From assembly GCA_024239035.1 (NCBI GenBank), contig JANBVK010000001.1:338115-402114 (forward strand): a DNA stretch of 64,000 nucleotides. The letters run 5' to 3'. Shown here one piece after another: positions 24,583 through 46,823 of the stretch. The stretch's first letter is position 1. The number at the start of each line of letters is the position of its first letter. The DNA is from Patescibacteria group bacterium. Its GTDB lineage: Bacteria > Patescibacteriota > Minisyncoccia > UBA6257 > GWB1-50-10. Made by a program: the position numbers and the translations under genes. Under the pieces are notes generated by a model that saw only the letters and a list, made by a program, of their open reading frames with translations, made no database searches and was not told the DNA's origin.

Positions 24583-24760
24583 TGTGCCGCGGGAGGGAAT
24601 CTCACTGCTCCCGAGCACATAACGCTTTATGTGCTCGGTGCGCTTTCACAACCCTGCTCCACCGCTGAAGCTAAGGCGGCACACGCGGTCGGTTTTGAAT
24701 AATTTCCAACACGGGGGAACCTCAAACTTTACCCCGACCCCCTTTCGTGTTCAATTCCTT
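24583..24760 (-). ncRNA. tRNA-3'-associated structured element, copy 4 (downstream of tRNA-Phe)
   Basis: Read on the minus strand: GGAATTGAACACGAAAGGGGGTCGGGGTAAAGTTTGAGGTTCCCCCGTGTTGGAAATTATTCAAAACCGA... The last part, ...CGGGAGCAGTGAGATTCCCTCCCGCGGCACA, copies the tRNA-Phe 3' end GGGGGTTCGATTCCCTCCCGCGGCACA. The core is shared with copies 1-3. Confidence 0.7.
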
Positions 24761-24770
24761 TTCTACAAAG

Positions 24771-24808
24771 ATGAATTTTTGGATACCTCAAGGTATCCAA
24801 AAATTCAT
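24771..24808. terminator. perfect hairpin (bidirectional terminator) between tRNA-Phe and element copy 4
   Basis: ATGAATTTTTGGATACC-TCA-AGGTATCCAAAAATTCAT. Confidence 0.6.
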
Positions 24809-24811
24809 ATG

Positions 24812-24883
24812 TGCCGCGGGAGGGAATCGAACCCCCGACGCATAGCTCTTCAAGCTATCGCTCTACCACTGAGCTACCGCGGC
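24812..24883 (-). tRNA. tRNA-Phe (GAA), CCA not encoded
   Basis: GCCGCGG-TA-GCTC-AGTGGTA-GAGC-G-ATAGC-TTGAAGA-GCTAT-GCGTC-GGGGG-TTCGATT-CCCTC-CCGCGGC-A. Confidence 0.85.
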
Positions 24884-24923
24884 GAGTAGATTCTAGTATA
24901 ATTAAAAAAAACCATTAGTCAAA

Positions 24924-25661
24924 ATGTTTATTCAAATTATAATTGCGAGTTTAACCGGCAGTGTATTCGCACTCGTAGGCGGGATTCTCTTGCTCACCAA
25001 AGAACAATTAGCGAGAAAGGTTTCTTTGCTTCTCGTGAGCTTCGCGGTGGGAAGTCTTTTGGGAGCGGCCTTTTTTGAACTACTACCAGAGGCTTTGAGC
25101 GAGATCGGAGATAAAAGCGCGTTCTCTTTTGTTATCCTGGGACTGCTTACTCTATTCCTTTTTGAGAAATTCTTAAAATGGTACCACTGCCACGACCGAG
25201 AAACGTGCGACATTCACACTTTCTCTGAGGCAGTGCTCTTTGGTGACGCATTACACAATTTTATCGACGGCATTATTATCGCGCTAAGTTTCAGTTTAGG
25301 CGTCCCCGCAGGTATTGCCGCAACTATCGCAGTTTTTTTTCACGAAGTCCCGCAAGAAATTGGCGACTTCGGTGTACTACTCCACGCCGGCTATAGTAAA
25401 AGCAAAATACTTTTATACAACACTCTTACTGCCCTTACCACGCCGGTGGGAGCCGTAGTAGGCTATATTGCGCTTCCTTTAATCTCCGGAGTACTGCCCC
25501 AACTTATTTCATTTGCCGCCGGCACCTTCATCTACATTGCTATTTCAGATTTAATGCCCGAACTCCGCCACAAAACCAAAGGCCCCGACTTTGCCCACTT
25601 ATTCGCAATCCTTCTTGGTCTTCTTGTTTTGTGGGGTATTGGTATACTTTTTCCGGAGTAG
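24924..25661 (+). CDS. ZIP-family metal (Zn/Fe) transporter
   Basis: 245 aa. HNFIDGIIIALSF and HEVPQEIGDF motifs. 8 TM helices. Confidence 0.8.
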   Translation: MFIQIIIASLTGSVFALVGGILLLTKEQLARKVSLLLVSFAVGSLLGAAFFELLPEALSEIGDKSAFSFVILGLLTLFLFEKFLKWYHCHDRETCDIHTFSEAVLFGDALHNFIDGIIIALSFSLGVPAGIAATIAVFFHEVPQEIGDFGVLLHAGYSKSKILLYNTLTALTTPVGAVVGYIALPLISGVLPQLISFAAGTFIYIAISDLMPELRHKTKGPDFAHLFAILLGLLVLWGIGILFPE

Positions 25662-25677
25662 AATAAATTTATGATTA

Positions 25678-25853
25678 TGTCTCCCCGCGAGAAAGCAAAC
25701 GTCACTCATATTCACTCACTCCCTCAAACCCCTCGGTTTGAGTAATTCCGCTTCACCCCGCCATACGGCGAGGCAGGCGGGAAAACTCCCCTTGGCCCGG
25801 GCAGGCCGCTTTCCTGACCCCTGCCTACCGGCAGGCAGGTCTTTCACAGTTCG
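25678..25853 (-). ncRNA. tRNA-3'-associated structured element, copy 3 (downstream of tRNA-Arg-TCT)
   Basis: Minus-strand read: GGGAGGAATCGAACTGTGAAAG-[GC-rich hairpin insert]-GGGGAGTTTTCCCGCC...GGCGGGGTGAAGCGGAATTACTCAAACCGAGGGGTTTGAGGGAGTGA...GCTTTCTCGCGGGGAGACA. The CTCAAACCGAGGGGTTTGAGGGAG hairpin and the terminal mimic of the tRNA-Arg 3' end (CGATTCCTCGCGGGGAGGCA) match the other copies. Confidence 0.6.
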
Positions 25854-25870
25854 ATTCCTCCCAGCATAAC

Positions 25871-25900
25871 AAAATCTGGACAGGCTACTGTCCAGATTTT
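25871..25900. terminator. hairpin between tRNA-Arg(TCT) and element copy 3
   Basis: AAAATCTGGACAG-GCTA-CTGTCCAGATTTT. Confidence 0.6.
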
Positions 25901-25907
25901 GTCTTGC

Positions 25908-25978
25908 CTCCCCGCGAGGAATCGAACCCCGATTTAGGGATTAGAAAACCCTCGTTCTATCCGTTGAACTACGGGGAG
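25908..25978 (-). tRNA. tRNA-Arg (TCT), CCA not encoded
   Basis: CTCCCCG-TA-GTTC-AACGGATA-GAAC-G-AGGGT-TTTCTAA-TCCCT-AAAT-CGGGG-TTCGATT-CCTCG-CGGGGAG-G. Anticodon UCU. Confidence 0.8.
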
Positions 25979-26030
25979 ATTAAAACGTACGTTGATTCTA
26001 AAGTAAAAATCGGATAATTTAAAGTGGTAA

Positions 26031-26101
26031 CGGGCCGTGGTGTAATGGTAGCACGCTTGCTTTGGGAGCATGTAGTTCGAGTTCGAATCTCGGCGGCCCG
26101 A
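26031..26101 (+). tRNA. tRNA-Pro (TGG), CCA not encoded
   Basis: CGGGCCG-TG-GTGT-AATGGTA-GCAC-G-CTTGC-TTTGGGA-GCATG-TAGT-TCGAG-TTCGAAT-CTCGG-CGGCCCG-A. A TTGATT-N17-TAATTT promoter-like pair lies upstream (25994-26022). The argF ATG at 26103 abuts the tRNA. Confidence 0.75.
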
Positions 26102-26102
26102 C

Positions 26103-27080
26103 ATGAAAAGAGATTTAAAATCAGACCAAGATTTTTCGGCCGAGGAGGTTCGGCAAATTTTTCAACTGGCAAAAAAAGTTAAAGAAAAACAGAAAAAGAA
26201 TGAACCGCATGAGTACCTGAAAAATAAATCATTGGCAATGATCTTCCAGAAGCCTTCCACCCGGACGAGAGTTTCCTTTGAGGTAGCAATGACTCATTTG
26301 GGTGGCCATGCTTTGTATCTAAACCCGAACGACCTCCAGCTCTCTCGTGGTGAAACCATTGCCGATACAACCCGAACTCTTTCCCGATATGTTCATGGAA
26401 TTATGGCCCGGGTTTTTAGTCATCAGGACATCCTTGATTTAGCCCGTTTTGCCTCGGTACCCGTGATTAATGGTCTTTCTGATAAGTTTCATCCATGCCA
26501 GAGTTTAACTGATATTTTCACAATTTGGGAAAAACTGAGTTACCCAGAGAAATTTCCTAACGGCTTTACCATTGTTTTTGTCGGTGACGGAAACAACAAT
26601 GTGACCAATTCCCTGCTTCTTCTCTGTGCCCGTTTGGGAATAAATTTCCGAGTCGGCTGTCCTAAAAAGTATCAAACCAAAACCGAGATTTTAGAATTAG
26701 CTAAGGCTGATTTTTCCAAAAGCGGTTCAACGGCGGAAATAACGAACGATGTTAATCAAGCGGTTAAAGGCGCTAATGTTTTATATACCGATGTCTGGAT
26801 TAGTATGGGACGGCAAGATGCTGAGAAAAGAAAAAAGATTTTAGTCCCCTACCAAGTTAATCAGAGGGTCTTGTCTTTAACCAAAAAGAAAACGATGGTA
26901 ATGCATTGTCTGCCGGCTCACCGCGGCGAAGAAATCACCGACGAAGTTATTGATGGACCTAATTCAATTGTTTTCGACCAAGCAGAGAATCGTTTGCATG
27001 TTCAAAAAGCTATCCTCATTTTCTTACTTCAACCTAAGTCTGTGGTTAACGGAGGTTTGGCTACTCCGGCTCCAAAATGA
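26103..27080 (+). CDS. argF: ornithine carbamoyltransferase
   Basis: 325 aa. STRTR carbamoyl-phosphate motif (FQKPSTRTRVSFE), HCLPAHRGEE motif. Confidence 0.85.
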   Translation: MKRDLKSDQDFSAEEVRQIFQLAKKVKEKQKKNEPHEYLKNKSLAMIFQKPSTRTRVSFEVAMTHLGGHALYLNPNDLQLSRGETIADTTRTLSRYVHGIMARVFSHQDILDLARFASVPVINGLSDKFHPCQSLTDIFTIWEKLSYPEKFPNGFTIVFVGDGNNNVTNSLLLLCARLGINFRVGCPKKYQTKTEILELAKADFSKSGSTAEITNDVNQAVKGANVLYTDVWISMGRQDAEKRKKILVPYQVNQRVLSLTKKKTMVMHCLPAHRGEEITDEVIDGPNSIVFDQAENRLHVQKAILIFLLQPKSVVNGGLATPAPK

Positions 27081-27562
27081 AAATAATAATTCAAAAATTC
27101 TGGGCGTGGTACGAACGCAACCTCACGCTCAATATTGCTATTGTCGCCCTGCTCTTCACATGGCAGCTCGTTCACCTCTACTGGCTTACGACTGATGTAG
27201 TTACTGTGCGTCTCTTTGGTGTAAGTTTCTTCAACCCAACGGGGGTTATAGAATTTCTCATCATCATTGCAGACTATGTGGAGATCCCCGCCATCATAGG
27301 TGCTTCCTTACTATATATAAGTCTCCTAAGGAAAGGGTTCAGTATAAAGAGCATAGCCATGCTGGTTTTTGTAAACAGTCAGTGGCTCCATATTTTTTGG
27401 ATAACTGATGAATTCATAATCGGACAGTTCGCCGGTGGGTCTCCAATTCTGCCGTTATGGCTTGCGTGGGTAGCAATTGGCGTTGACTATCTTGAACTGC
27501 CTGTCATCTACGATACTCTAAAGAGATTCTTCACCTCAATTTCACCTAAAAGAATTCGATAA
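27077..27562 (+). CDS. hypothetical membrane protein
   Basis: 161 aa, 4-5 TM helices. Start overlaps the argF stop (ATGA). Confidence 0.4.
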   Translation: MKIIIQKFWAWYERNLTLNIAIVALLFTWQLVHLYWLTTDVVTVRLFGVSFFNPTGVIEFLIIIADYVEIPAIIGASLLYISLLRKGFSIKSIAMLVFVNSQWLHIFWITDEFIIGQFAGGSPILPLWLAWVAIGVDYLELPVIYDTLKRFFTSISPKRIR

Positions 27563-27584
27563 AAGTAAGTATCTTTGCTCGGTC

Positions 27585-28196
27585 TTACAGGGACTTATCA
27601 AACTTCTCTATTTTAACCAAAAACTCTTCGTTCAAATCGTTAATTTTCTCCGCACGTTCGTTCACTTCATCGAGGTAATTCTGAACTGCTCTCCGGTCAG
27701 CAAACGAGTTGGTTTGAATAGCCCCTAATAAACTCCCCAAAAAATTATTCAAGTTTTGGGTATAAATAATAAATTCACTGACAAGCGTGATCTCTACCGC
27801 TACTGCTTCATAGGCCAAACGCTGACTCTTCGCTGAGGAAATCGCACTTAAAGATTCCGCGAGTTCCTGTAAATACCCGGATAATTCAAAGGCTTGATTG
27901 TGCGCTTCTGCATTGTTCTGACGCGCTTCTTGAATTAAGGTATGAGCCTGGCTCGCATTACCACTTAAATCTGAAAGATTAACCGCCTTAATTTTCTCAT
28001 TGGTGGCGCCCGTGAGTGCCACAATTTTCTTACTCACCACTGCAGCGTTCTGTCTGGCCGCTAGAAATTCGTTGGGTACCTGAATCGGCTGGTTAAAATC
28101 GAGAAAAAAATAAAGAGCTATAATCAGAACCGCAATTACAATGAGTACAAACCACAGAATTCTACGTTTTACTGCTTTTTTTAGCTTCAATTTCAT
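27585..28196 (-). CDS. hypothetical N-terminally anchored coiled-coil protein
   Basis: 203 aa. TM ILWFVLIVIAVLIIALYFF, then a helical region. Confidence 0.4.
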   Translation of the reverse strand: MKLKLKKAVKRRILWFVLIVIAVLIIALYFFLDFNQPIQVPNEFLAARQNAAVVSKKIVALTGATNEKIKAVNLSDLSGNASQAHTLIQEARQNNAEAHNQAFELSGYLQELAESLSAISSAKSQRLAYEAVAVEITLVSEFIIYTQNLNNFLGSLLGAIQTNSFADRRAVQNYLDEVNERAEKINDLNEEFLVKIEKFDKSL

Positions 28197-28283
28197 ATTA
28201 GCTGATTATATCTCCAACCAAACCCTCAATCAAATAATCGTGTGGTTGCAAAAAAAACATGCTATATGCAAACATTAACGTAG

Positions 28284-28354
28284 GCGGGATTAGTTTAGTG
28301 GTAGAATGCTAGCCTTCCAAGCTGGAGACACGGGTTCGATTCCCGTATTCCGCA
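28284..28354 (+). tRNA. tRNA-Gly (TCC), CCA not encoded
   Basis: GCGGGAT-TA-GTTT-AGTGGTA-GAAT-G-CTAGC-CTTCCAA-GCTGG-AGAC-ACGGG-TTCGATT-CCCGT-ATTCCGC-A. Confidence 0.85.
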
Positions 28355-28358
28355 CAAG

Positions 28359-28395
28359 AAGATAAACCCGTGGATCTATTCCGCGGGTTTATCTT
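28359..28395 (+). terminator. 12-bp perfect-stem hairpin directly after tRNA-Gly
   Basis: AAGATAAACCCG-(13-nt loop)-CGGGTTTATCTT. Confidence 0.55.
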
Positions 28396-28397
28396 TT

Positions 28398-28543
28398 GCG
28401 GGAATCGAACAGGAAAGGGGGTCGGGGAAAAGTTAGGTTTCCCCGTGTCGGAATGAGCGAAGCAGACTCAAAACCGAGGGTTTTGAGGGAGCGATCCTGA
28501 GTTTGTCGAAGGAAAGTGACATTCGCTTCCCGTATCCCGCACA
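28398..28543 (+). ncRNA. tRNA-3'-associated structured element, copy 1 (downstream of tRNA-Gly)
   Basis: GCGGGAATCGAACAGGAAAGGGGGTCGGGGAAAAGTTAGGTTTCCCCGTGTCGGAATGAGCGAAGCAGACTCAAAACCGAGGGTTTTGAGGGAGCGATCC...GACATTCGCTTCCCGTATCCCGCACA. The start is the reverse complement of the tRNA-Gly T-arm and acceptor. The end is a 21/23 direct copy of the tRNA-Gly 3' end TTCGATTCCCGTATTCCGCACA. Confidence 0.7.
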
Positions 28544-28550
28544 ACGAATA

Positions 28551-28595
28551 AATCTAACGGCTCAACGACACCTGTCGTTGAGCCGTTAGATTTTT
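28551..28595. terminator. AACGGCTCAACG-family palindromic hairpin plus T-run
   Basis: AATCTAACGGCTCAACGACA-CC-TGTCGTTGAGCCGTTAGATTTTT. Confidence 0.6.
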
Positions 28596-28644
28596 ACAGA
28601 CTTCCCTATTTGCATAGAAAAGACGAATCTGGTAGATTTCTCCT

Positions 28645-28676
28645 GTAACGTTACAATTAATTTATATATTGTTACA
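28645..28676. promoter_or_regulatory. perfect 12-bp palindrome TGTAACGTTACA plus a third GTTACA half-site upstream of the ECF sigma operon
   Basis: TGTAACGTTACA at 28645-28656 and GTTACA at 28671-28676, about 65-95 nt upstream of the sigma-factor ATG. Candidate operator. Confidence 0.3.
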
Positions 28677-28738
28677 TGTGGTTTTCAGTTTATTTTCCCG
28701 AGTTAAGAAACATATTACTAACTATATCGTTCTAGTTT

Positions 28739-29299
28739 ATGAAAGAAGAACAAGAGCTCGTTAAAAAGGCCCAAAAGGGAGAACCTGAGGCTTTTGGTGT
28801 GTTATACGATAAGCACCTTACACCAATTTACCGATTCATCTTCCTAAAAGTTGGAAACAAAGCTGACGCTGAAGATCTCTGCCACCAAGTATTCCTTAGT
28901 GCCTGGAAAAATATTGGGCGCTACCGTTTCCAAGGATTCCCATTCTCAAGCTGGCTCTACAAAATTGCTTCCAACACCGTTATTGACCATTGGAGAACCA
29001 AAAAAAATAATACTAGCATTGAGCTAGTAGCAGAAAGCCTCCTCTCTGAATCACCCAAACTCGATCACCTTCTGGACCAAAAACTCGAAGTACAGCTCAT
29101 TAAAACCTCTTTAATTAAATTAGAATCGGAACAGCAGAACGTTATCATTATGAGATTTGTAGACGAGCTCACTAACAAAGAGATTGCACAAATTCTCGGC
29201 AAAAGCGAAGGGGCAATACGTGTGATCCAACACCGAGCTATCAAACGACTCAGAAAACATATAAGCGACCATAATCATCACGAAACCGAAAACGCATGA
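28739..29299 (+). CDS. ECF-type sigma-70-family RNA polymerase sigma factor
   Basis: 186 aa. Region 2 (IYRFIFLKVGNKADAEDLCHQVFLSAWKNIGRY...SWLYKIASNTVIDHWR) and region 4 HTH (EIAQILGKSEGAIRVIQHRAIKRLR). Confidence 0.85.
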   Translation: MKEEQELVKKAQKGEPEAFGVLYDKHLTPIYRFIFLKVGNKADAEDLCHQVFLSAWKNIGRYRFQGFPFSSWLYKIASNTVIDHWRTKKNNTSIELVAESLLSESPKLDHLLDQKLEVQLIKTSLIKLESEQQNVIIMRFVDELTNKEIAQILGKSEGAIRVIQHRAIKRLRKHISDHNHHETENA

Positions 29300-29760
29300 A
29301 TACAAACAAAGAAATTATTACCCAGTTAAAAAGGCTCCGTTATATAGAGCCTGATTCTGCGTTTGCCAGAGGTTCCCGAAGTATAGTTCTCTCAGTAAAC
29401 CATGGACGAACTCGTTCCCAAATTTGGTTGTGGACTAGCGCCACGGCAGTAACTTTCTTGTTCCTTGCTGCAGTCATATCTTATAACGCACTATTCTCAT
29501 CTAAGCCTGTTCTTTCCTCTTCTTTTAATCCTGAAAGTCTCGAACAAGAGTTCAGCAACCTCACTATTAACATCCAACTTGAAGAGATTAAATACCAACA
29601 AAGCGTGAATCAAGCCATTGCATCGGCTCTAAACGAAATACAAAACACTTATCCAAGACACCTCAATAATTCACTCCTAGAATCGGAGGAGGCGGGTATT
29701 AATCTTGATGAGTCAATCAACCCATACATTGATGAGCTTCTAGAGAAAGCTATATTTTAG
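29296..29760 (+). CDS. putative anti-sigma factor (single TM), translationally coupled to the sigma factor
   Basis: 154 aa. Start overlaps the sigma stop (ATGA). One TM helix (WLWTSATAVTFLFLAAVISY). Confidence 0.4.
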   Translation: MNTNKEIITQLKRLRYIEPDSAFARGSRSIVLSVNHGRTRSQIWLWTSATAVTFLFLAAVISYNALFSSKPVLSSSFNPESLEQEFSNLTINIQLEEIKYQQSVNQAIASALNEIQNTYPRHLNNSLLESEEAGINLDESINPYIDELLEKAIF

Positions 29761-29779
29761 AATGTTTCAGACCTAAGCC

Positions 29780-30700
29780 ATGAAAAAATTCTTAGTTGCT
29801 TTCATAGTACTGGGTATTAGCTATTCACTTCTGGCTGCTTCTGCAAACGCCCAGTCAGCCGCAGTACAGGAAGCTTTTGAAAATGTTGAAGACCAAGTAG
29901 AGGACTTGGTTATTGCTAAAGACGAAAATATACCCGACGATTTGGCGTTCAGAATTGAAACTTTTAAAGAGGTGGTTGATTTTTCTATTCTTGAGGCGAA
30001 AGACTTAAAAATTAAATTATTAAGCTTGGACCAAATTGAAGAAGACGCCTCTTCTTGGAAAGAAGAAAGAATCAAAGATCTAAACCGAGCCCTAGTCCAC
30101 TACGACGAACAAAAACAATTAATAGACGATAGCGAAGTAATCGACCTGGAAACCATTAAGAATATTGCGAGTGATTTTAAGGACTGGCGGGAACAAACGT
30201 ATCTCCCCGCCGCCGAGCAAGTTAATGAGTTCCTCCTGGTTGAACAAGAACAAAACGCGGTTAATATTGCCGAAAGGCGTTGGCAAAGAATTGATAAAGA
30301 CATAACAAAACTACAAGAAGCTAACCTTAAAGGCGTCTCAGGTCTGCGAGAACTTTTAGATAAGGCTGGAGAACTAATAGAGGAAAGTGATGAGATAAAC
30401 CAAGCTGCTGAAAATCTTTTCTTTGATCGCTATATCTACACGAACTCTTCTACAAGTTCATCCACCGCCACAACTACTGAAATTACTGACGAGACCGAAG
30501 ACCAAACTATCATTCATACCGAGGAAGTATCTGATGAACCCGACTCTACGGGTACTGAGGCTGACGCAACGGACGTAGAGTCTGTGCCACCACCCCCTTT
30601 GTCAATAAAGGATTTGGTTAGGACATCCTTAACAAAAATTAAGGAGGCCTATCGGATCTTTATTGAAATGAGTAATTCGGTGAGGGAGTTGCTCAGTTAG
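29780..30700 (+). CDS. secreted coiled-coil protein with S/T-rich acidic linker
   Basis: 306 aa. Signal peptide MKKFLVAFIVLGISYSLLAASANA. TNSSTSSSTATTTEITDETEDQT low-complexity stretch. Confidence 0.4.
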   Translation: MKKFLVAFIVLGISYSLLAASANAQSAAVQEAFENVEDQVEDLVIAKDENIPDDLAFRIETFKEVVDFSILEAKDLKIKLLSLDQIEEDASSWKEERIKDLNRALVHYDEQKQLIDDSEVIDLETIKNIASDFKDWREQTYLPAAEQVNEFLLVEQEQNAVNIAERRWQRIDKDITKLQEANLKGVSGLRELLDKAGELIEESDEINQAAENLFFDRYIYTNSSTSSSTATTTEITDETEDQTIIHTEEVSDEPDSTGTEADATDVESVPPPPLSIKDLVRTSLTKIKEAYRIFIEMSNSVRELLS

Positions 30701-30734
30701 TAATCCACGGCTTTTTTGCGCGTGGAAATAACAA

Positions 30735-30770
30735 ACCCCTCCGACTAGAATTTAGTCGGAGGGGTTTGTG
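30735..30770. terminator. bidirectional perfect hairpin between convergent genes
   Basis: AAACCCCTCCGACTAGAATTTAGTCGGAGGGGTTT. Confidence 0.65.
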
Positions 30771-30793
30771 TTTCTCCAAAACCTGGAGATGCC

Positions 30794-31069
30794 TTACCTA
30801 ACTGCTTCTTTAAAAACCTTACCTGCCTTAAATTTAGGAGCAGTCGAAGCAGCAATTTGAATTTTTTCACCGGTTTTAGGGTTAACACCCATCCGAGCGG
30901 CCCGTTTCACGACTCTAAATATACCGAATCCAGTAATTGCGACTTCTTCGCCTCGACTGAGTGTCTTTTGAATGGTGTCGAAAACAGCCTCAACCGCATC
31001 CTGGGCCTGCTTTTTAGAACCGAGGTCCGCGGCCTGCTGAACAGCTTCTACAAGACCATCTTTTCTCAT
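30794..31069 (-). CDS. hup: DNA-binding protein HU
   Basis: 91 aa. ...ITGFGIFRVVKRAARMGVNPKTGEKIQIAASTAPKFKAGKVFKEAV. Confidence 0.85.
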   Translation of the reverse strand: MRKDGLVEAVQQAADLGSKKQAQDAVEAVFDTIQKTLSRGEEVAITGFGIFRVVKRAARMGVNPKTGEKIQIAASTAPKFKAGKVFKEAVR

Positions 31070-31235
31070 AATTATTTATTAGTTATTTTAGGTATTTAGC
31101 CACTTGGCATCCAGTGACCATCTCATACTCAATCGACCTTTAAAAATCGCTTTTATTATAGCACATTCGCCATTGCCCACGTATTTTACCACTTTTATAT
31201 CCTTTTAAGCTAGTTTAATCCAGTTTAATCACTTG

Positions 31236-32765: not shown

Positions 32766-33018
32766 AAAAGTATATTAGTTTATTTTTTGCCCCCTCTAGA
32801 AAATCAAAATGAACCTTTCCCTTATTAGAAAGGTTTTCAAAAATACGAGTTGTAGTTCTCACGATATCAATTAGTTTCATTAATTTTCCAAAGCGGGGTT
32901 TACGACGTTTTATTTATAAGTTTGTATTAATTATCGTAACGTGCCTTCTTTAAAATGTCAAGCCCGGATACTTCAGATAGTAGTGATGAAACGCTTCTTT
33001 TGATGCTAGAATTAATCC

Positions 33019-34575: not shown

Positions 34576-34622
34576 GTCTTGCCTGCCGGCGGGCAGGTGT
34601 CCCTAGATTGCAGATAGAGGTA

Positions 34623-34650
34623 TTGACAGGCTTAAAATTAGGATTATAGT
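34623..34650 (+). promoter_or_regulatory. near-consensus sigma-70 promoter (TTGACA-N16-TATAGT)
   Basis: TTGACAggcttaaaattaggatTATAGT, directly after the gpmI terminator hairpin CCTGCCGGCGGGCAGG. Confidence 0.5.
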
Positions 34651-34656
34651 GGATTT

Positions 34657-35558: not shown

Positions 35559-35562
35559 TAAT

Positions 35563-37468: not shown

Positions 37469-37476
37469 AATACTGC

Positions 37477-37560
37477 GCCGAGGTGGTGAAATTGGCAGAC
37501 ACGCAGCGTTCAGGACGCTGTGCTCGCAAGGGCTTGTGGGTTCAAATCCCACCCTCGGCA
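37477..37560 (+). tRNA. tRNA-Leu (CAG), long variable arm, CCA not encoded
   Basis: GCCGAGG-TG-GTGAAATTGGCAGAC-A-CGCAG-CGTTCAGGA... anticodon loop UUCAGGA (anticodon CAG). T-arm GTGGG-TTCAAAT-CCCAC. Acceptor 3' CCTCGGC-A. Confidence 0.85.
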
Positions 37561-37652
37561 CATAGAGAAGTATGTTCACTGAAGAAATCTCAAAATATTA
37601 CAAATTTGAAAAAATAAAATTACCAATTACTAGTTACTAATTTACTAAAATT

Positions 37653-39437: not shown

Positions 39438-39441
39438 ATTT

Positions 39442-40431: not shown

Positions 40432-40437
40432 CCTTTA

Positions 40438-40474
40438 TAAACGGCTCAACGGCGTCGAGTCGTTGAGCCGTTCG
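40438..40474. terminator. AACGGCTCAACG-family bidirectional hairpin between convergent trpS and ileS
   Basis: TAAACGGCTCAACGGCGTCGAGTCGTTGAGCCGTTCGG. Confidence 0.6.
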
Positions 40475-40551
40475 GTTTAGATGTAGACAAAATCTGGTTT
40501 GTGAGGTCGTGTCTTCACTCCGTCCACATATGTGGATAAACTGAGGACACG

Positions 40552-43500
40552 TTATTTCAGTTTTCGGAGCGCGAGCCAAATTGGCCACGTATTAAGTTTT
40601 GTTTCCAGTTCAATATCAAATTTACTCGATCGCTTAAACTCTATTGTCTTCGCATTAACTTCCTTTTTCACTAATTTCTCATTTGTCTCAACAACGTGGT
40701 GTAACTCCTGCGGCAGCTCAACCATCAAAACAACCTTGTCTTTTGGCTCAAACCCCGCATCCTGCCGCAGACCCTGAACTAAACGAACAAATTCCCGAAG
40801 CCAGCCTTCTTCTTTCAGCTCGTGAGTAAGAGTAGTATCCAGTTTAACTTCTTCTTCTAAATTTTTATCGAAGATGACGTTTTTAATATTAACTTCGTCT
40901 TTAATAATTTCGTAAATACCAAAACTTTTAGAAAACTCTATTGAAGTACTTACTTTCGAAAGAGGTTGACGAACCTTAATGCCTTCTTCGGCTCTTTTAG
41001 CTAAAATAATACTTGAAAGGCGACGGGCGTCTTCCATCTCTTTTAATAATTTTTTATTAATCATCTTTTTATTTGCCTTTGGCCAATCCTCCAAGTGAAC
41101 CGACAATTTACGATTCGCGGCCAGTGATTTATAGAGCGCTTCTGCAAAAAACGGCACAAAAGGCGCAAGAAGCTTACTGACCTCCAAAAGTACGTATCCG
41201 AGTGTCTCTGATGCTGCTCGATAATCTTGTTGGCTCTCCGGTCTTTGAAATCTTCTTCTGGACCGCCGAATATACCACCTAGAGAGATCGTTTACCAAGA
41301 CCTCTATCGCCCGGGCAGCACTTCCCACTTCATACCGTTCTAAGTCCCCGGTCACTTCCAGAATAGTCTCATTAAGCCGGGATAAAACCCAAACATCGAG
41401 TACGTTGGTTGTTTTTGGCGCGCCATCGGGCGACCTCTTATCTGTATATGTATTAAAGAAAACAAAAGAATTATAAGTTAGTGAAATAAATTGCCGCAAC
41501 ACCTTAGCTAAATCCCTCTCATCAAAACGTTTAGGTTCGCTTGGGGAATTTACTGTGTAAAAATACCAACGAATAGCATCGGCACCGTACTTTGAAATCT
41601 CTATCCACGGATCGACAACATTCCCTTTTGATTTTGACATTTTCTGGCCACGCTTATCCAAAACTAATCCATGAGAAATCACGTTCTTGTACGATGTGCC
41701 ACGCCCCAAAAGAACCGAGACCGCTAAGAGCGTGTAAAACCATCCACGAGTTTGATCTAATCCTTCAACAATGTAATCAGCCGGGAAATCAATCCGCCCG
41801 CTGGCAGACTTTTCAAAAGGATAATGCGCTTGCGCAAACGGCATCGCTCCCGAATCAAACCAGGCATCTATCACTTCTTTAACCCGTTCCATATTTCCCT
41901 TACATTGAGTACTAGGACAAGAAAAACGGACCTCATCTATGTAGGGTCTATGAAGATCTAATTCACCAATCTCGTTGCGAGGGATATTCCTGAAATGCAC
42001 CGGATAAGCTTTACTCTTTTCAGGATAAAAGCCTTCCGGTAAACCTTTTTTTGCGCTCATTTCACTTTCTCTGACCAAACCAGTCATCAAAGAGTACATC
42101 ATCCATAAAGGATCGCCGTGACTTACAATAACAATGGTCTTATTTTTATATTTCTTCTCTGTAAACTTTATAAAATCAAAAATTCTCGCACTCAAATCGT
42201 TCAATGACTCGCCATTGGGAGCTGGCCGCGTAAAGCGCTCGTGGGGATAATTAAAATAACGATGATATTCCTCTATACTTTTATCGTTAAAATCACCGAC
42301 ATCTAACTCTCTCAAACGGACATCATAGACAACCTTAAGGTCGGTTTTGTGAGCAATTATCCCAGCTGTTTCTTTGGTACGAAGTAAATCCGAAGAGAAA
42401 ATCAAATCAATCTTTTTCTTTTTCAACTCCCGGCCAAGCCTACGCGCTTGATCTTCACCGATAGTAGTAAGAGGATATTTCTTCTTCTCCGGCCAACAAC
42501 TATTGATGCCTTCTAAATTATTTTTAGCTTCTGCGTGCCGCACAAAAATGTACTGATTTGTGCTCTCCCCCCAAAGTTTTTCAAGTCTTTCAATACTTCC
42601 TACCACCTCCGTCTTACCGCATTTCTTACACTCCCAGATAGGTAAAGGCGTGCCCCAGTAACGCTCTCGGGAAAAAGCCCAATCCTTCGCCTCTCTCAAC
42701 CATTCGCCAAATCGGCCTTCTTTAATGTGTTTAGGTATCCAGTTAATCTTTTTATTGGCGGCCAGAAGCTTGGGCCGTAGCTTACTCATTGCGATAAACC
42801 ACGAATCGCGGGCGTAGTAAATAAGAGCCGTGTCACAACGCCAGCAAAATGGGTAGTCGTGAGTGTATTGCTCGGTTTTTAGCTTATAGCTTTTAGCTTC
42901 TAGGTGGTGTAAAATTTTCTCTTCGGTTTTTTTATCCTTGACGTATAGACCGGATAAACCTGGAACTTCTTTAGTAAATTTTCCGTTCTCGTCAACTGTG
43001 TGATACTGGGGTAATCCCACTTTTTTCCCGAGATTATAATCATCCTCTCCGTACATCACTGCCGTATGCACCACACCGGTTCCTTCAGCCGTCGTCACAA
43101 ATTCAGCTGGATAGACTTTATAAGAATTTTTATGTTTTAGCGGCTTTACGTTAAAAAGCGGTTCGTATTCCCAACCAACAAGATCTTTCCCGTTGAAGGT
43201 TTCTTCTTCATTCCCTTTATAGGAATCTTCATCAAGAATAGAGAGCCGATCCTCCGCAAGAATAAGAATTTCCCCGTTTTTCATGCGCACTCTCTTGTAG
43301 AGAATATCTTTACCGACTGCAAGCGCCACGTTGCCAGGTAGAGTCCAGGGAGTTGTTGTCCAAGCGAGAATGTATACTTTTCCTGACTTTATTTGCGGAT
43401 CAGATCCCCTACGAACGCGGAACTTCACATATACCGAGCTGTCAGTAGTCTCTTTATAGCCCTGAGCGAGCTCATGAGAAGAAAGAGCCGTTCCGCAGCG

Positions 43501-44046
43501 GGGACACCACGGTAACACTTTGTGCCCCTTATAAAGCAGTTTTTTCTTTGAAATCTGTGAGATTATCCACCAGAGCGTCTCAATATATTTTGACTCGTAA
43601 GTAATATAGGGATTCTCCATGTCCAGCCAGAAACCGATGCGTTCGGTGAGCTTCTCCCATTCGTCTTTGTATTTCCATACCGATTCTTTGCACTTTCGGT
43701 TAAACTTGGCAATGCCGAATTTTTCAATTTCCTGCTTTGATTTAAGACCCAATTCCTTCTCAACTTCTATTTCAACCGGCAAACCATGCGTGTCCCATCC
43801 GCCGCGCCGAGGCACAAAAAAACCGGACATCGTTTTGTAACGAAGGATAATATCCTTAAACGAGCGGGCTAAAACGTGGTGAATCCCCGGCCGGCCATTC
43901 GCTGTGGGAGGCCCTTCGTAAAATACGAATTTCTTACTCTTCACTCTCTGCGCAACTGCTTTATCAAAAATTCTGTTAGTTTTCCAGAATTCCAAAACTT
44001 TCTCTTCTATTTCGGGTAGTGAAAACTTTTTGAGCTGTTGAAGCAT
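40552..44046 (-). CDS. ileS: isoleucyl-tRNA synthetase with an embedded histidine-phosphatase (PGAM-family) domain
   Basis: 1164 aa. HIGH-like PGIHHVLA, KMSKS. Zinc knuckle WECKKCGK...(about 230-aa insert)...CPSTQC. The insert carries the RHG-type motifs IFVRHAEAKNN and IVIVSHGDPL. Confidence 0.9.
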   Translation of the reverse strand: MLQQLKKFSLPEIEEKVLEFWKTNRIFDKAVAQRVKSKKFVFYEGPPTANGRPGIHHVLARSFKDIILRYKTMSGFFVPRRGGWDTHGLPVEIEVEKELGLKSKQEIEKFGIAKFNRKCKESVWKYKDEWEKLTERIGFWLDMENPYITYESKYIETLWWIISQISKKKLLYKGHKVLPWCPRCGTALSSHELAQGYKETTDSSVYVKFRVRRGSDPQIKSGKVYILAWTTTPWTLPGNVALAVGKDILYKRVRMKNGEILILAEDRLSILDEDSYKGNEEETFNGKDLVGWEYEPLFNVKPLKHKNSYKVYPAEFVTTAEGTGVVHTAVMYGEDDYNLGKKVGLPQYHTVDENGKFTKEVPGLSGLYVKDKKTEEKILHHLEAKSYKLKTEQYTHDYPFCWRCDTALIYYARDSWFIAMSKLRPKLLAANKKINWIPKHIKEGRFGEWLREAKDWAFSRERYWGTPLPIWECKKCGKTEVVGSIERLEKLWGESTNQYIFVRHAEAKNNLEGINSCWPEKKKYPLTTIGEDQARRLGRELKKKKIDLIFSSDLLRTKETAGIIAHKTDLKVVYDVRLRELDVGDFNDKSIEEYHRYFNYPHERFTRPAPNGESLNDLSARIFDFIKFTEKKYKNKTIVIVSHGDPLWMMYSLMTGLVRESEMSAKKGLPEGFYPEKSKAYPVHFRNIPRNEIGELDLHRPYIDEVRFSCPSTQCKGNMERVKEVIDAWFDSGAMPFAQAHYPFEKSASGRIDFPADYIVEGLDQTRGWFYTLLAVSVLLGRGTSYKNVISHGLVLDKRGQKMSKSKGNVVDPWIEISKYGADAIRWYFYTVNSPSEPKRFDERDLAKVLRQFISLTYNSFVFFNTYTDKRSPDGAPKTTNVLDVWVLSRLNETILEVTGDLERYEVGSAARAIEVLVNDLSRWYIRRSRRRFQRPESQQDYRAASETLGYVLLEVSKLLAPFVPFFAEALYKSLAANRKLSVHLEDWPKANKKMINKKLLKEMEDARRLSSIILAKRAEEGIKVRQPLSKVSTSIEFSKSFGIYEIIKDEVNIKNVIFDKNLEEEVKLDTTLTHELKEEGWLREFVRLVQGLRQDAGFEPKDKVVLMVELPQELHHVVETNEKLVKKEVNAKTIEFKRSSKFDIELETKLNTWPIWLALRKLK

Positions 44047-44107
44047 AATCTTAATTCTATAAATTATCTTGCTAAAATTAAACCTGACCCTTGGTCTCTC
44101 TATTTCT

Positions 44108-45811
44108 TTACATCTGTTTAGGAGCAGAAATTCCTAAGAGAGAAAGGCCGCTTGTAAAAGTTATAGAAAGAGCGCGCGCAAGAGCAACTCGAAACGCTTT
44201 CTTTCCCGTACTTTCTTCCTGCATAACCGGATGTGAATGATAAAACTCATTAGCTTTCTGCGAAAGATTGTGCAAATAGAAAGCTAAAGTATTCGGTGTC
44301 CGTTTCTCAAGCGCTGATTCTATAACTTCCGGAAACCTCAAGAGAGCGACAAGCAATAATCTTTCGGTATCATCTAACGTCTCGCCCTCAGACATTTTGT
44401 TCGGTGTCTTTCCAATCTTTCGTAGAATGCTTAAAAAACGTGCATTAGTGTACTGGATATACGGACCAGTATCACCCTCAAAGGATAATGCTTCCTCACG
44501 GTTAAAGATTATATTTGATTTCCGATGATGAGATAAATCAAAGTATTTCAAGGCTCCAATACCCACTTCTTTTGCAACTTCATCTGCGTTCTCTAAATCA
44601 GGATTCTTCTCCTGAATCACTTCTCTAGCCCGAGCAACCACGTCATCTAGCACGCTCTGAAGAGAAATAACCGAGCCTTTACGAGTACTCATTGCCCCTT
44701 CAGACAAAGACATGAAACCGAACTCAATATGCTCACTCTCGTTGACGCCTTTAAGACCTAAAAGTTCGGAAACTTTAAACAACTGTTTGAAATGATGCAA
44801 TTGCCGCACGTCCACCACGTAGAGATTTTTCCAAAAATCCAGCTCTCTTTGCCAATATTTGAGAGTAGCAAGGTCACGAAGCAGATACGTCGAGGCTCCA
44901 TCAGATTTAGTAAGCACGGCTTCATCTAAGCCGTAATCTAAAAGATCTACCACAACCGCTCCATCGTCCGTCTTTTTAGCTACTTTTTTTCGTAAGGACA
45001 GTTCTACAATTTCGGGCATCAAATCCTCATACGCGCTTTCGCTTCTATGCTTTTCGAAAGGCAGAAGATTTAGTTGGCTTATAATCTCCCGGAATTTTTC
45101 CATTGACACATCCACCATCCACTGCCAGATTTCTCTGTTTTCTTTATCACCTCGTTCTAATTTTGCAAATTCTTCTTTCGCCTTCTTGCGGCGTTCAGGA
45201 TCGTCTTCAATAAGGCGGGTTTCATCAATATAAAGCTGATTTAATTTTTCAACCGGGTTCTGCTTTACTTCGTCTTTTTCCTGCTCGCTCAATGACTTAT
45301 AACCGTAGATTAAAATACCAAATTGTGTTCCCCAGTCACCAATATGGGTATCTGATACAACCGTATACCCCTCGGTAATAAACATTCGCTTCAGAGCGTC
45401 ACCTATCACCGCTGAACGCAGGTGACCCACATGAGGAATTTTTGCAACGTTCGGTTGAAAATATTCCACCCGTACCGTTTTTCCACGCCCTATATCGCTT
45501 TTTCCCCACTGACTAGTTTTCTTAAGTAGATGATTTAGGTTAGAAAGAAGTGCTTTGTCGTGAATCCAAAAATTAATAAAGCCTGGGGGCACCACTTCAA
45601 TTTTCTTGAAAAATTCCTCAGGCGCTTTTTGCCTCAGATGAGAAATAATATCCTCGGCAACGCTCACGGGGGTTTTCCCCAAGTGCTCCGCCAGCTGAAA
45701 AGCGACGTTTGTCGAATAATGGCCGAATGTTTCCTTTTCGGGAACAGTTACGTTAATCTCAGTATTTCTAGGGACAACTTTCTTAAGATAAGTAATAATT
45801 TTATCTCGCAT
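44108..45811 (-). CDS. argS: arginyl-tRNA synthetase
   Basis: 567 aa. HVGHLRSAVIGD (HIGH) and the C-terminal DALS anticodon-binding domain. Confidence 0.9.
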   Translation of the reverse strand: MRDKIITYLKKVVPRNTEINVTVPEKETFGHYSTNVAFQLAEHLGKTPVSVAEDIISHLRQKAPEEFFKKIEVVPPGFINFWIHDKALLSNLNHLLKKTSQWGKSDIGRGKTVRVEYFQPNVAKIPHVGHLRSAVIGDALKRMFITEGYTVVSDTHIGDWGTQFGILIYGYKSLSEQEKDEVKQNPVEKLNQLYIDETRLIEDDPERRKKAKEEFAKLERGDKENREIWQWMVDVSMEKFREIISQLNLLPFEKHRSESAYEDLMPEIVELSLRKKVAKKTDDGAVVVDLLDYGLDEAVLTKSDGASTYLLRDLATLKYWQRELDFWKNLYVVDVRQLHHFKQLFKVSELLGLKGVNESEHIEFGFMSLSEGAMSTRKGSVISLQSVLDDVVARAREVIQEKNPDLENADEVAKEVGIGALKYFDLSHHRKSNIIFNREEALSFEGDTGPYIQYTNARFLSILRKIGKTPNKMSEGETLDDTERLLLVALLRFPEVIESALEKRTPNTLAFYLHNLSQKANEFYHSHPVMQEESTGKKAFRVALARALSITFTSGLSLLGISAPKQM

Positions 45812-45868
45812 ATTATAATTGTAACCTAAGAAGGTGTTTTCGGGTAAATAAGGGATTAGAATTAATAT

Positions 45869-46306
45869 ATGAGTACATTAGCCATAAATAAACGAGCAAC
45901 GTTTGATTATGAGACTCTAGAAAAGTTCACTGCGGGCATTGAGCTTACCGGGCATGAAACAAAGTCTATGAAGCTCGGCCACCCAAACATTGTGGGCGCA
46001 CATGCAATTATACGAGATAACGAGGTTTTTTCGGTTAATATAGATATTCCTTCTTTCCAACCCTTAAATGCTCCGAGTAACTACGATCCCCTGCGCACTA
46101 GAAAATTACTCCTGAGGCGCAGTGAGATAAAGTATCTCGCCGGTAAATTGCTGAGCGGCTTGACGCTCGTACCCTTGAAACTCTATACTGACCACGGATT
46201 AGTAAAGGTAGAAATTGCGCTGGCACGCGGCCGCAAAAAACACGACAAACGCGAGCTCATTAAAAAACGAGAAAGCGATAGAGAGATAAGAAAGTTCAAA
46301 AAGTGA
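45869..46306 (+). CDS. smpB: SsrA-binding protein SmpB
   Basis: 145 aa. ...YETLEKFTAGIELTGHETKS...KLLLRRSEIKYLAGK... The tmRNA gene follows immediately. Confidence 0.9.
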   Translation: MSTLAINKRATFDYETLEKFTAGIELTGHETKSMKLGHPNIVGAHAIIRDNEVFSVNIDIPSFQPLNAPSNYDPLRTRKLLLRRSEIKYLAGKLLSGLTLVPLKLYTDHGLVKVEIALARGRKKHDKRELIKKRESDREIRKFKK

Positions 46307-46308
46307 TA

Positions 46309-46619
46309 GGGGATGTTAGGCTTTGACAGAATACATTCTGGTAAATTGCAGGTCGAGCTGATTGACTCGTAAATCCGATCAAACTAATTTAACTGCTAAT
46401 AAAAACGCAGCTCCAGCTCTAGCATACGCTTAAGCTGGTATCGGTCCTTGATATCTAATATAGGTTAACCGGTATAATACATTAGATTCGCTTCTGGCAA
46501 AACGGTCCGATAGTCAGAAGTTAAATTATAGGATCACTTCTGTTTTCGTAAGAAAACTAAGCTTGTAGATTATCTACTCAGAAATATTTTGGACACCGGT
46601 TCAACTCCGGTCATCTCCA
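46309..46619 (+). ncRNA. ssrA: tmRNA (SsrA), CCA not encoded; tag peptide ANKNAAPALAYA
   Basis: 5' GGGGATGTTAGGCTTTGACAG...; tag ORF GCT AAT AAA AAC GCA GCT CCA GCT CTA GCA TAC GCT TAA at 46394-46432. tRNA-like 3' end CCGGTTCAACTCCGG-TCATCTCC-A pairs with the 5' GGGGATG. Confidence 0.8.
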
Positions 46620-46629
46620 CAAACAAAAA

Positions 46630-46657
46630 ATACTCCGCCTTGTGCGGGGTATTTTTT
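46630..46657 (+). terminator. rho-independent terminator after tmRNA
   Basis: ATACTCCGC-CTTGT-GCGGGGTAT-TTTTTTG. Confidence 0.6.
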
Positions 46658-46662
46658 GTTTT

Positions 46663-46823
46663 CTGGAATGGTCACGGAGTTGAACAAGCGGAGGGGGTCG
46701 GGGAACCACGATTGGTTCCCCGTGTTGGAATGAGTCCGCCATCTGGCGGACGGATTCAAAACCGAGGGTTTTGAAAGAGCTCCGACGTAAAGTTGGAGCG
46801 ATGTGAAACTCCTCATCTCCACA
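46663..46823 (+). ncRNA. tRNA-3'-associated structured element, copy 2 (downstream of tmRNA)
   Basis: CTGGAATGGTCACGGAGTTGAACAAGCGGAGGGGGTCGGGGAACCACGATTGGTTCCCCGTGTTGGAATGAGTCCGCC...TTCAAAACCGAGGGTTTTGAAAGAGC...GTGAAACTCCTCATCTCCACA. The start approximates the reverse complement of the tmRNA 3' end. The end copies GTTCAACTCCGGTCATCTCCACA. Confidence 0.7.

Follow-up and report, generated by a model that had tools for sequence, protein, structure and literature searches.

The window analysed here, 64,000 nucleotides (nt) of the genome of a Patescibacteria group bacterium (assembly GCA_024239035.1, contig JANBVK010000001.1, positions 338,115 to 402,114), contains four copies of a small structured element that follows genes for tRNAs or transfer-messenger RNA (tmRNA) and is bracketed by sequences matching the end of the gene that it follows. 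These copies had been pointed out by a model from the letters alone (below, the sequence-only reading), and we find that the observation is real and much broader than first described. With about even confidence, we interpret the element as a member of a phylum-wide family of small mobile RNA-structure cassettes of a new kind that lack open reading frames (ORFs) and reside at gene ends. Its copies are ~150 to 300 nt long and include a conserved folded core of ~100 nt. We could not place the element in any described class, and literature searches found no description of anything like it.

Eight tRNA and tmRNA genes were called in the window with ARAGORN and Rfam, and there are exactly four copies of the element, after tRNA-Gly, tmRNA, tRNA-Arg(TCT) and tRNA-Phe (copies 1 to 4, respectively; Table 1), each downstream of its host gene and on the same strand. 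A covariance model of the core, run over all 64 kb with filters off, gives four matches at 79, 78, 55 and 22 bits, and the best further match on the element's own strand reaches only ~12 bits; the sequence-only reading was thus right about the number and position of the copies. The divergence of hairpin A that it described for copy 3 is also real (GC-rich hairpins stand there instead), and hairpin B is indeed found in all four copies, that of tRNA-Phe carrying a loop insertion of ~35 nt. The core motifs are too frequent for chance: on the element strand of the window, two exact hairpin B motifs are present where 0.11 are expected, and the core motif GGGGGTCGGGG is found three times where 0.5 occurrences are expected. 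The terminal direct repeat is specific for its host: when queried with the last 20 nt of the tRNA or tmRNA plus 2 nt of trailer, it matches its own host gene at 20 (Gly), 19 (Phe) or 17 (Arg) of 22 positions and, for tmRNA, at 14 of 22 without gaps, a low score that goes along with a 2-nt deletion, while any non-host tRNA end scores only 10 to 15 of 22 against the downstream repeat. The ends are therefore adapted to each host gene as proposed, and the objection that this terminal similarity could be due to chance is removed.

All copies share the layout gene...X, apical (trailer) hairpin, inverted repeat (IR), core and X', in which X is the end of the target gene and X' is a second direct copy of it. 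X of the tRNA type comprises the sequence from G53 to the discriminator plus a following CA, and the gene stays intact. The IR, which reverse-complements the start of X, covers positions 53 to ~64 in tRNAs; it is thus complementary to the T-loop and the 3' strand of the T-stem and not, as the sequence-only reading had it, to the acceptor strand as well. X' begins at G53 in the T-loop in tRNA copies, its first ~5 nt being the element's own (GTGAG in the tRNA type). The length of the direct repeat ranges from 12 to ~85 nt, and the longest repeats include stop codons and terminators. The core, with its hairpins joined by junctions that do not vary, is composed, in this order, of J1 (NGRAAGG), hairpin A, GUGUYGGAA, an optional hairpin, hairpin B with a CCGAGGG loop, RGAG, a variable hairpin C and a final ...GAC. 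The hairpin next to the gene and the inverted segment, which the sequence-only reading had listed as separate parts, are one structure with the tRNA 3' end and trailer as its 5' arm: of 35 tRNA-linked copies, 32 form one long hairpin from G53 to the end of the IR, among them the window's Gly, tmRNA and Phe copies with the main core type. This long hairpin has an internal loop opposite the acceptor strand in the window copies and is a near-perfect palindrome in L056 and L038 (individual loci carry an L number). At L025, L040 and L005, the IR directly follows the tRNA with no intervening hairpin. A simple terminator scan did not score the post-tRNA hairpins as canonical terminators.

Alternatively, the IR can pair with the start of X' and form a helix, P1, that closes the core. 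The strands of P1 are made of unrelated sequences at different targets. The IR differs by at most one mismatch from the complement of the real tRNA in 32 of 39 copies and from that of X' in 7 of 39. About 20 of the 39 tRNA-type copies have an X' that starts with GTGAG or GTGAA, not GTTCG, which puts a tandem G·A into P1; rpsI-type copies have a U·U at the equivalent place, and polX-type copies have a bulged U. At L016, both P1 strands are altered together in one compensated change. The acceptor strand of X' is identical to that of X in 24 of 29 alignable copies, although it lies outside P1. Support for P1 is taken from such explicit examples and from the comparison of the IR with X and X'. Statistics on P1 helix counts did not separate real from swapped arms and are uninformative because many arms share the T-loop and mismatches were allowed.

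The structure of the core is under selection. Across hairpins A and B (19 pairs in 48 sequences), 99.9% of cells are paired and 91 cells carry double changes, compared to 25±4 in shuffles, of which 0 of 500 reach 91; in a control with the partner slid by 1 to 3 columns, pairing is only 32% to 65%. Seven of the A/B pairs do not vary at all, in part as a consequence of having been fixed in the search pattern, and the covariation sits in the unfixed parts. Two invariant G·U pairs and scattered wobbles are confined to the gene-sense strand, indicating that this is the functional strand, be it as RNA or as single-stranded DNA. The earlier statements that the element is cargo-free and no peptide are supported.

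Scans of genomes and metagenomes with one exact hairpin A pattern uncovered 74 loci in species-representative genomes and 94 in metagenome contigs, several of which have names mentioning groundwater or sediment; 142 distinct copies are left after removal of duplicates. All genome records with a phylum name are Patescibacteria (Parcubacteria, Paceibacteria lineages, Berkelbacteria, Doudnabacteria and others). Only 55 of the 142 copies (~40%) directly follow a tRNA or tmRNA gene on the same strand (median distance 66 nt; 16 tRNA types plus tmRNA), whereas 71 are without a nearby tRNA, 6 are convergent with a tRNA in such a way that the 3' strand of P1 is the antisense of the real tRNA, and 10 lie at contig edges. 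A direct repeat of at least ~14 nt is present in 69 of 114 testable copies and in 0 of 114 controls. Among the non-tRNA copies with a repeat, 20 have an X that spans the stop codon of an ORF on the same strand and 7 have one that spans the start of an ORF on the opposite strand; rpsI (11 loci) and polX (6 loci) are recurrent protein-gene targets. Linkage of this kind together with protein-gene targets makes it a gene-end element and not the tRNA- and tmRNA-specific one that had been described. GC-rich hairpins replace hairpin A at L180 (1800-1985) and at 25701-25848 of the window; since such divergent copies are missed or barely detected by the covariance model, the family is larger than counted.

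These results leave a negligible probability for the idea that the copies are decayed tandem tRNA duplicates or products of chance. X' does resemble a tRNA 3' fragment, and tRNA-like ends that ARAGORN does not call exist (L024), but the core has neither similarity to tRNA nor an anticodon-arm remnant, the same core is found at rpsI, polX and other protein genes, the motif counts are far above chance, and neutral decay is ruled out by the covariation of the core hairpins.

Some loci deviate from the common arrangement. In the convergent orientation (L001, L061, L062, L023, L037 and L048), the element is antisense to the tRNA and has a sense T-arm copy on its far side, with no third copy; L023 has one X' between two facing elements. 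Three loci of one metagenome-assembled genome (MAG; L013, L015 and L039) have identical flanks far past the core (ACCACCAAGCTATTAAACGACAAAGG ... GGGGGTGTCGGGAACCCCCAC) with no detectable target repeat and may represent a larger repeat unit that contains the core. At L090 (15-237), an FMN riboswitch (104 bits) lies within ~70 nt after the element copy.

Comparison with relatives of the window genome (L075, L076 and L077; ZIP proteins 87% to 89% identical) revealed empty orthologous sites, as the sequence-only reading had proposed to check. These loci keep the tRNA-Phe / ZIP / tRNA-Arg / tRNA-Pro / tRNA-Gly neighbourhood wholly or partly, and the core covariance model finds no element in them. 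All three have the ZIP stop codon 14 to 21 nt past tRNA-Arg(TCT) with neither hairpin nor element between, whereas in the window it is X', not the tRNA itself, that sits 17 nt from this stop codon. Further empty sites are those at tRNA-Gly in L077 and at tRNA-Phe in L076. Because close relatives have empty sites at orthologous positions, the elements are insertions. L075 has a hairpin orthologous to the apical hairpin of copy 1, and L077 is without it. An AT-rich relic ending in AGTGAGATTTCCTCATCCTCCTCAACA after the hairpin of tRNA-Gly and a lone IR AGAATCGAACGGGAA after tRNA-Phe with no core, both in L075 (3400-3530 and 596-620, respectively), look like remnants of the element left by decay and deletion. 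At the syntenic Jorgensenbacteria locus L056, Gly and Pro are followed by the element, and Arg is not. In the window, polX (49694-51430, minus strand) adjoins a NUDIX gene (49224-49694, minus strand) with no element between them, which makes the window genome an empty site for polX-type copies. An ORF with a weak match to LAGLIDADG_3 (PF14528), taken from precomputed annotation, lies directly upstream of tRNA-Phe in L076 (321-1001); this tRNA-Phe is inverted relative to the window, and the synteny break coincides with the element site.

The anatomy of the element could also be that of a cis-acting RNA module in host 3' trailers for which mobility is secondary, and the trailer RNA raised by the sequence-only reading is structurally possible. 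The IR would then pair with X into a 3' hairpin of 30 to 45 bp or with X' to close the core, and the core would sense a ligand or protein and thereby set how transcripts of highly expressed genes are terminated, processed at the 3' end or stabilised. An aptamer-like core with a multi-helix junction, invariant unpaired bases and strong covariation would suit this role, as would the mutually exclusive pairings (near-perfect with X, imperfect with X'), the orientation relative to the neighbouring gene end, which is always fixed, the abundance of the RNAs from its hosts (tRNA, tmRNA, rpsI) and the hairpin-free IRs right after the tRNA at L025, L040 and L005. We nevertheless consider it unlikely. 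Repeats of up to ~85 nt with stop codons and terminators go far past what pairing needs, pairing of the IR with X would unfold the tRNA, and the same genes manage without the element in close relatives. Moreover, there are copies that run antisense to a tRNA or border on the 5' end of a gene on the opposite strand, and the element is not linked to any gene function.

Occupied and empty protein genes differ in where the native gene end is found. The polX repeat of L019 contains a 36-nt block in which X and X' are identical at 35 of 36 positions, followed by coding tails that match at 14 of 30 positions (hand count from the alignment) and both encode ...EKM..LK-stop. Its closest PolX relative, L178 (86% identical), carries no element and is collinear with the X' side of L019 in tail, stop codon and downstream DNA. 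The L019/L178 identity is 0.85 to 0.98 in the 3' half of the gene and then 0.65 and 0.58, a drop that spans the last ~120 nt and thereby the repeated block and the attached tail. The sharp boundary between 97% and 47% identity excludes duplication followed by drift and identifies a recombination junction. Judged by these alignments, the attached end of the L019 gene (block and tail) is foreign, and the native tail is the one in X'. For rpsI, the empty site L179 (S9 92% identical) consists of rpsI, a terminator and a convergent gene, and L180 (S9 86%) has the element between X and X' with a native-type terminator and flank after X', which still reads W-K-K-R-stop via synonymous changes. L179/L180 and L178/L019 are thus pairs of an empty and an occupied allele, and target duplications of 36 to 77 nt are seen in the family. 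At position 68 of tRNA-Gly, the working window gene has T (in a G·U pair), and X' and both relatives have C. These ends fit transfer of a ready-made cassette by double crossover, on the left in the gene body and on the right at the conserved-block end of X', so that X' would act as a portable right homology arm. We rejected atypical PolX C-termini as markers of the element, given that four genes with AW[SD]L-type ends carry none, and used the tests of collinearity and identity profiles in their place.

The core can also reach a new target on its own. The cores of L047 (after tRNA-Pro) and L067 (after tRNA-Ile) of the same MAG are 95% identical between J1 and ...GACGAC GTGA, whereas the IRs, apical hairpins and X' of these two loci are mutually unrelated and each fit their own tRNA; the L067 repeat takes in the local terminator, too. 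Near-identical cores with target-specific arms mean that a new insertion derives a direct, an inverted and a second direct copy from its target, with the core between the last two. Core subfamilies are independent of target type, and one of them is found at tRNA genes and at polX. A tandem array at L005 (1714-1948) contains tRNA-Pro, an element, X' and then a second, degenerate element; this array and the repeats that include the IR at L033 and L040 fit repeated use of X-like sequences.

We propose that the core is closed by P1, whose two strands would come from the target gene. For a new copy, the core alone would move, and the new target would supply X, IR and X' in a direct-inverted-core-direct triplication. 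This could happen via replicative template switching in which the nascent strand reverses at the trailer hairpin, copies X as the IR, jumps to a donor core by microhomology (for tRNAs the universal T-loop, imitated by the constant GTGAG end) and finally returns to X. The product would resemble both an "insertion with long target duplication" and the inverted triplications of DUP-TRP/INV-DUP events. Established copies would spread as whole cassettes between genomes by homologous recombination, with the gene body as left and X' as right arm and probably after DNA uptake. Spread via these arms would turn the attached end into a foreign surrogate and displace the native end downstream. The core itself may act as RNA, made by read-through from the host gene, with the IR choosing between X and X', and its strong conservation suggests that it does something beyond passive hitchhiking. 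Each individual step, whether the template switch, natural transformation as the route or the core acting as RNA, has less of our confidence than the overall picture of a mobile cassette.

Several observations weigh against this picture. Conservation of the core across distant lineages is unexplained by a passive hitchhiker, and some activity of the core would thus be missing from the model. No intermediate or enzyme was found, and the origin by three switches is deduced from the end product. A right arm of only 20 to 40 nt would make homologous recombination inefficient, and the case for native versus surrogate ends is built on two protein genes and one tRNA position. The identity of X' and X in the acceptor strand (24 of 29) could reflect functional pairing with host RNA and not history, and functional pairing could likewise be why the IR is closer to the real tRNA (32 of 39) than to X' (7 of 39). 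Finally, a simple promoter scan found no sigma-70-like promoter in front of any copy. One variant would make the core, as RNA or single-stranded DNA, active in its own spread and the element a reprogrammable homing element with no protein gene. Its IR and X' would pair with both strands of a conserved gene end and recruit a host nuclease, recombinase or polymerase, the cassette would be copied into element-free alleles, and re-templated arms would open up new targets; we regard this variant as quite unlikely.

No candidate protein partner emerged from our searches. Pfam scans of the 48 ORFs of at least 110 amino acids in the window detected housekeeping genes only, with no integrase, transposase, reverse transcriptase, Cas, tnpA/tnpB or other recombinase gene, so what had been noted for the surroundings of the copies is true of the entire window. 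When ORFs within 2.5 to 3 kb of the element were clustered all against all, at 74 and then at 168 loci, no gene family recurred beyond the targets (S9, L13 and PolX) and ordinary neighbours. A GIY-YIG ORF was rejected as a partner, being seen at one locus only. This nuclease ORF (PF01541, E 3e-15; L024, 1381-1730) ends just before a 3' fragment of the element that consists of hairpin C and X', on a contig with further acceptor-like end copies and without a tRNA. The hairpin A pattern had 0 matches in IMG/VR, and nothing matching copy 1 was found by blastn among 50,697 phage and 72,556 plasmid records.

The direct repeats, in which the sequence-only reading had seen the classic footprint of site-specific integration, are not a simple integrase footprint: an integrase is missing, the repeat varies from 12 to ~85 nt and its first ~5 nt belong to the element. 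An unlikely alternative, brought up in part by the sequence-only reading, is a non-autonomous integrative element with a folded attachment site that is mobilised in trans by a site- or structure-specific recombinase. In a single-stranded or circular form, the core would join the base of a long hairpin that holds a duplex copy of the gene end, and strand exchange with the chromosomal gene end at the stem mismatch would yield gene-X(surrogate)-hairpin-IR-core-X'(native). Circular permutation does imply a free form made of the core and one long capped hairpin, a fixed stem imperfection lies beside the presumed crossover (tandem G·A for tRNA, U·U for rpsI, bulged U for polX), surrogate and native ends are on the expected sides, and the repeat of tRNA copies starts at G53 in the T-loop, a region where some integrases cross over. 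On the other hand, neither the 168 loci nor the window yielded a linked integrase, Xer-type or HUH gene, dozens of unrelated targets are beyond a sequence-specific recombinase, an attachment-site model does not explain arms that were rebuilt from the new target at L047 and L067, and no copy was found in the viral, phage and plasmid collections.

Very unlikely in our view is a guide-RNA-like scaffold whose nuclease or recombinase partner is encoded elsewhere. The core would serve as this scaffold, X' as a 3' guide with the sense strand of the target and the IR as a second guide for the other strand, and the complex would cut or recombine element-free alleles and lead to homing, much as TnpB omega RNA uses the flank past the transposon end. 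This idea draws on a scaffold followed by ~20 nt that are identical to the adjacent target and different at every copy, on the conserved acceptor-strand part of X' outside P1, on two segments that can pair with both strands of one target and on homing with co-conversion of flanking gene sequence as seen at polX. However, a candidate effector was found neither in linkage with the element nor in the window, an occupied site retains the target X and would be prone to self-cutting, repeats of 50 to 85 nt with coding-type divergence are unlike guides, and Rfam models for omega RNA or IS605-related RNAs gave no match. TnpB/IscB omega RNAs and IS110 bridge RNAs are encoded together with their protein inside an insertion sequence (IS) element, and bridge RNAs read both strands. 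The element shares with them a structured scaffold joined to a segment that matches adjacent DNA but differs by the absence of such an ORF (with no adjacent DEDD/Tnp recombinase ORF at any locus, unlike IS110) and by matching segments that are much longer and mutually complementary.

In the way it works, the element is closest to integrative elements that bring surrogate gene ends, such as P4-like islands or phage 21 and e14 in icd, and it resembles prophages and islands at the 3' ends of tRNA, tmRNA and protein genes in the direct repeat of the gene end, in a foreign attached end (with mostly synonymous divergence) and a native end displaced downstream and, for tRNA copies, in a repeat starting at G53 in the T-loop. 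Unlike them, it is 150 to 300 nt long, has no integrase and no cargo other than the structured core, occupies dozens of targets including gene 5' ends and always comes with an inverted target copy. The rule of one lineage and one attachment site that applies to integrase-type elements fails here, with 95% identical cores at tRNA-Pro and tRNA-Ile of one genome. CTXphi attP(+) with XerCD and integron attC are folded single-strand attachment sites with one recombinase-binding sequence or geometry and one target. As in these, two inverted segments ~100 nt apart form a target-duplex-like stem with a fixed mismatch or bulge, but the stem sequence of the element follows the target and no recombinase is linked.

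Among small elements, MITEs (miniature inverted-repeat transposable elements), REPINs, Correia, ERIC and RUP elements are bounded by terminal inverted repeats that stay constant, make short target duplications of fixed length and rely on a cognate transposase or RAYT. The element is similarly small, ORF-less, multi-copy, hairpin-forming and located beside gene ends, but its inverted arms are target-derived and different at each site (T-loop, rpsI, polX), and its repeats of 12 to ~85 nt are no short fixed duplication. There is documented precedent for insertions that lack mobile-element genes and come with long target duplications of variable length (PMC2853133). The element shares variable duplications of tens of bp and the lack of a transposase or integrase with these insertions, and its empty and occupied alleles, duplications of >30 bp and lack of mobility genes agree with their definition, which is operational and does not denote a mechanism. 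Yet, the inserts described there are kilobase gene units with neither a conserved structured element nor an inverted target copy, compared to a folded core of ~100 nt here. Several hosts of such insertions are naturally transformable. Homing introns of groups I and II are, like the element, selfish structured RNAs in conserved genes of the Candidate Phyla Radiation (CPR) with a foreign tract in the flanking gene; the element differs in that its core spans ~100 nt, the gene product is uninterrupted, and neither a homing endonuclease nor an Rfam intron match is found. Moreover, patescibacterial group I introns in tRNAs lie in the anticodon loop and not after the gene (PMC13011429). Riboswitches and T-box cis regulators differ in residing in 5' leaders, whereas the element is at gene ends and has no Rfam family.

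Rfam recognised only tRNA and tmRNA, both in the whole window at gathering threshold and in permissive searches of each copy (E up to 10), and its intron, IS605-associated and omega RNA models did not match the element copies. The Clostridiales-2 RNA (RF02937) scored 20.4 bits against copy 1, far from its gathering threshold of 58.6 bits, and was dropped as a chance match because it was not reproduced in 20 other element loci. Group I or II introns were rejected, as upstream tRNAs are complete, the gene is uninterrupted and no intron model matches. Likewise, splicing of X' onto the tRNA as part of a T-loop intron conflicts with GA in X' where the T-loop has T55 and C56 and with the tmRNA copy being without 2 nt of the T-stem. 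Retrons, hammerhead, hairpin or hepatitis delta virus (HDV)-like ribozymes and a primer-binding site were also rejected: they have no Rfam support, no reverse transcriptase is present, and the IR stops short of the tRNA 3' terminus.

If the mobile cassette that we favour is real, it would represent a new lifestyle of a parasitic or symbiotic nucleic acid inside a very small genome, with no gene of its own but a folded core, a host-sparing copy of the gene end and arms rewritten for each target. It possibly explains tRNA-end fragments of this kind in Patescibacteria, which should then not be read as integrase scars, and it would mark gene flow by recombination in a phylum not yet genetically tractable. 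The core offers a compact, strongly conserved RNA fold that is open to direct tests of cleavage, ligation and binding of proteins or ligands. If the arms truly were guides, it would be a natural scaffold with a changeable target.

Table 1. Parts of the four element copies in the window (positions are those of the 64,000-nt stretch).
Feature	Position	Strand	Core covariance model
Copy 1, X: 3' part of tRNA-Gly(TCC), G53 to discriminator plus CA; 5' arm of long hairpin	28334..28356	+	
Copy 1, apical hairpin, terminator-like	28357..28397	+	
Copy 1, IR GCGGGAATCGAAC, complement of T-loop and 3' T-stem	28398..28410	+	
Copy 1, core	28411..28521	+	79 bits
Copy 1, core, 5' part: J1 AGGAAAGG, hairpin A (28417-28453), linker hairpin		+	
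Copy 1, core, 3' part: hairpin B (28468-28486), GGGAG, variable hairpin C with GTGAC end		+	
Copy 1, X': near-copy of tRNA-Gly 3' end	28522..28545	+	
Copy 1, second hairpin after X', 20 pairs; presumed native terminator	28550..28593	+	
Copy 2, X: tmRNA 3' end, T-arm to CCACAA	46599..46623	+	
Copy 2, apical hairpin, terminator-like	46624..46662	+	
Copy 2, decayed acceptor-strand complement plus IR	46663..46685	+	
Copy 2, IR ACGGAGTTGAAC, fits tmRNA-specific T-loop	46674-46685	+	
Copy 2, core: hairpin A from 46693, hairpin B 46756-46774	46686..46802	+	78 bits
Copy 2, X' GTGAAACTCC--TCATCTCCACAA, copy of tmRNA 3' end with 2-nt deletion	46803..46825	+	
Copy 3, X: 3' part of tRNA-Arg(TCT)	25904..25927	-	
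Copy 3, apical hairpin and spacer; missing at empty sites of L075, L076, L077	25863..25903	-	
Copy 3, IR GGGAGGAATCGAAC	25849..25862	-	
Copy 3, core, divergent subfamily: GC-rich hairpins replace hairpin A	25701..25848	-	22 bits, E 0.0014
Copy 3, hairpin B	25724-25741	-	
Copy 3, X' GTTTGCTTTCTCGCGGGGAGACA; stop codon of convergent ZIP gene 17 nt on	25678..25700	-	
Copy 4, X: 3' part of tRNA-Phe	24810..24832	-	
Copy 4, apical hairpin and spacer	24761..24809	-	
Copy 4, IR AAGGAATTGAAC	24749..24760	-	
Copy 4, core: hairpin A, hairpin B with ~35-nt loop insertion, hairpin C	24606..24748	-	55 bits
Copy 4, X' GTGAGATTCCCTCCCGCGGCACA, element-type GTGAG where T-loop has GTTCG	24583..24605	-	

Beyond the parts listed in Table 1, the ATG of a gene for pterin-4a-carbinolamine dehydratase directly follows X' of copy 4. 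Seven of the tRNA and tmRNA genes in the window (23058-56469) do not encode CCA and have the discriminator followed by C-A in 7 of 7 cases (GCA|CAAG, GGCA|CATA), which may be a 3'-processing signal of this genome; unlike these seven, tRNA-His ends in CCCCA|ATT, which could be an encoded CCA. Two other ORFs of the window stand out. A class I tRNA-synthetase ORF (40555-44046, minus strand; PF00133 plus anticodon-binding domain, IleRS-like) has a histidine-phosphatase domain (PF00300, residues 500-657) inside the match to the catalytic model, an unusual fusion, and an ORF with a holin superfamily IV domain (PF04020; 35193-35555, plus strand) lies alone among housekeeping genes.

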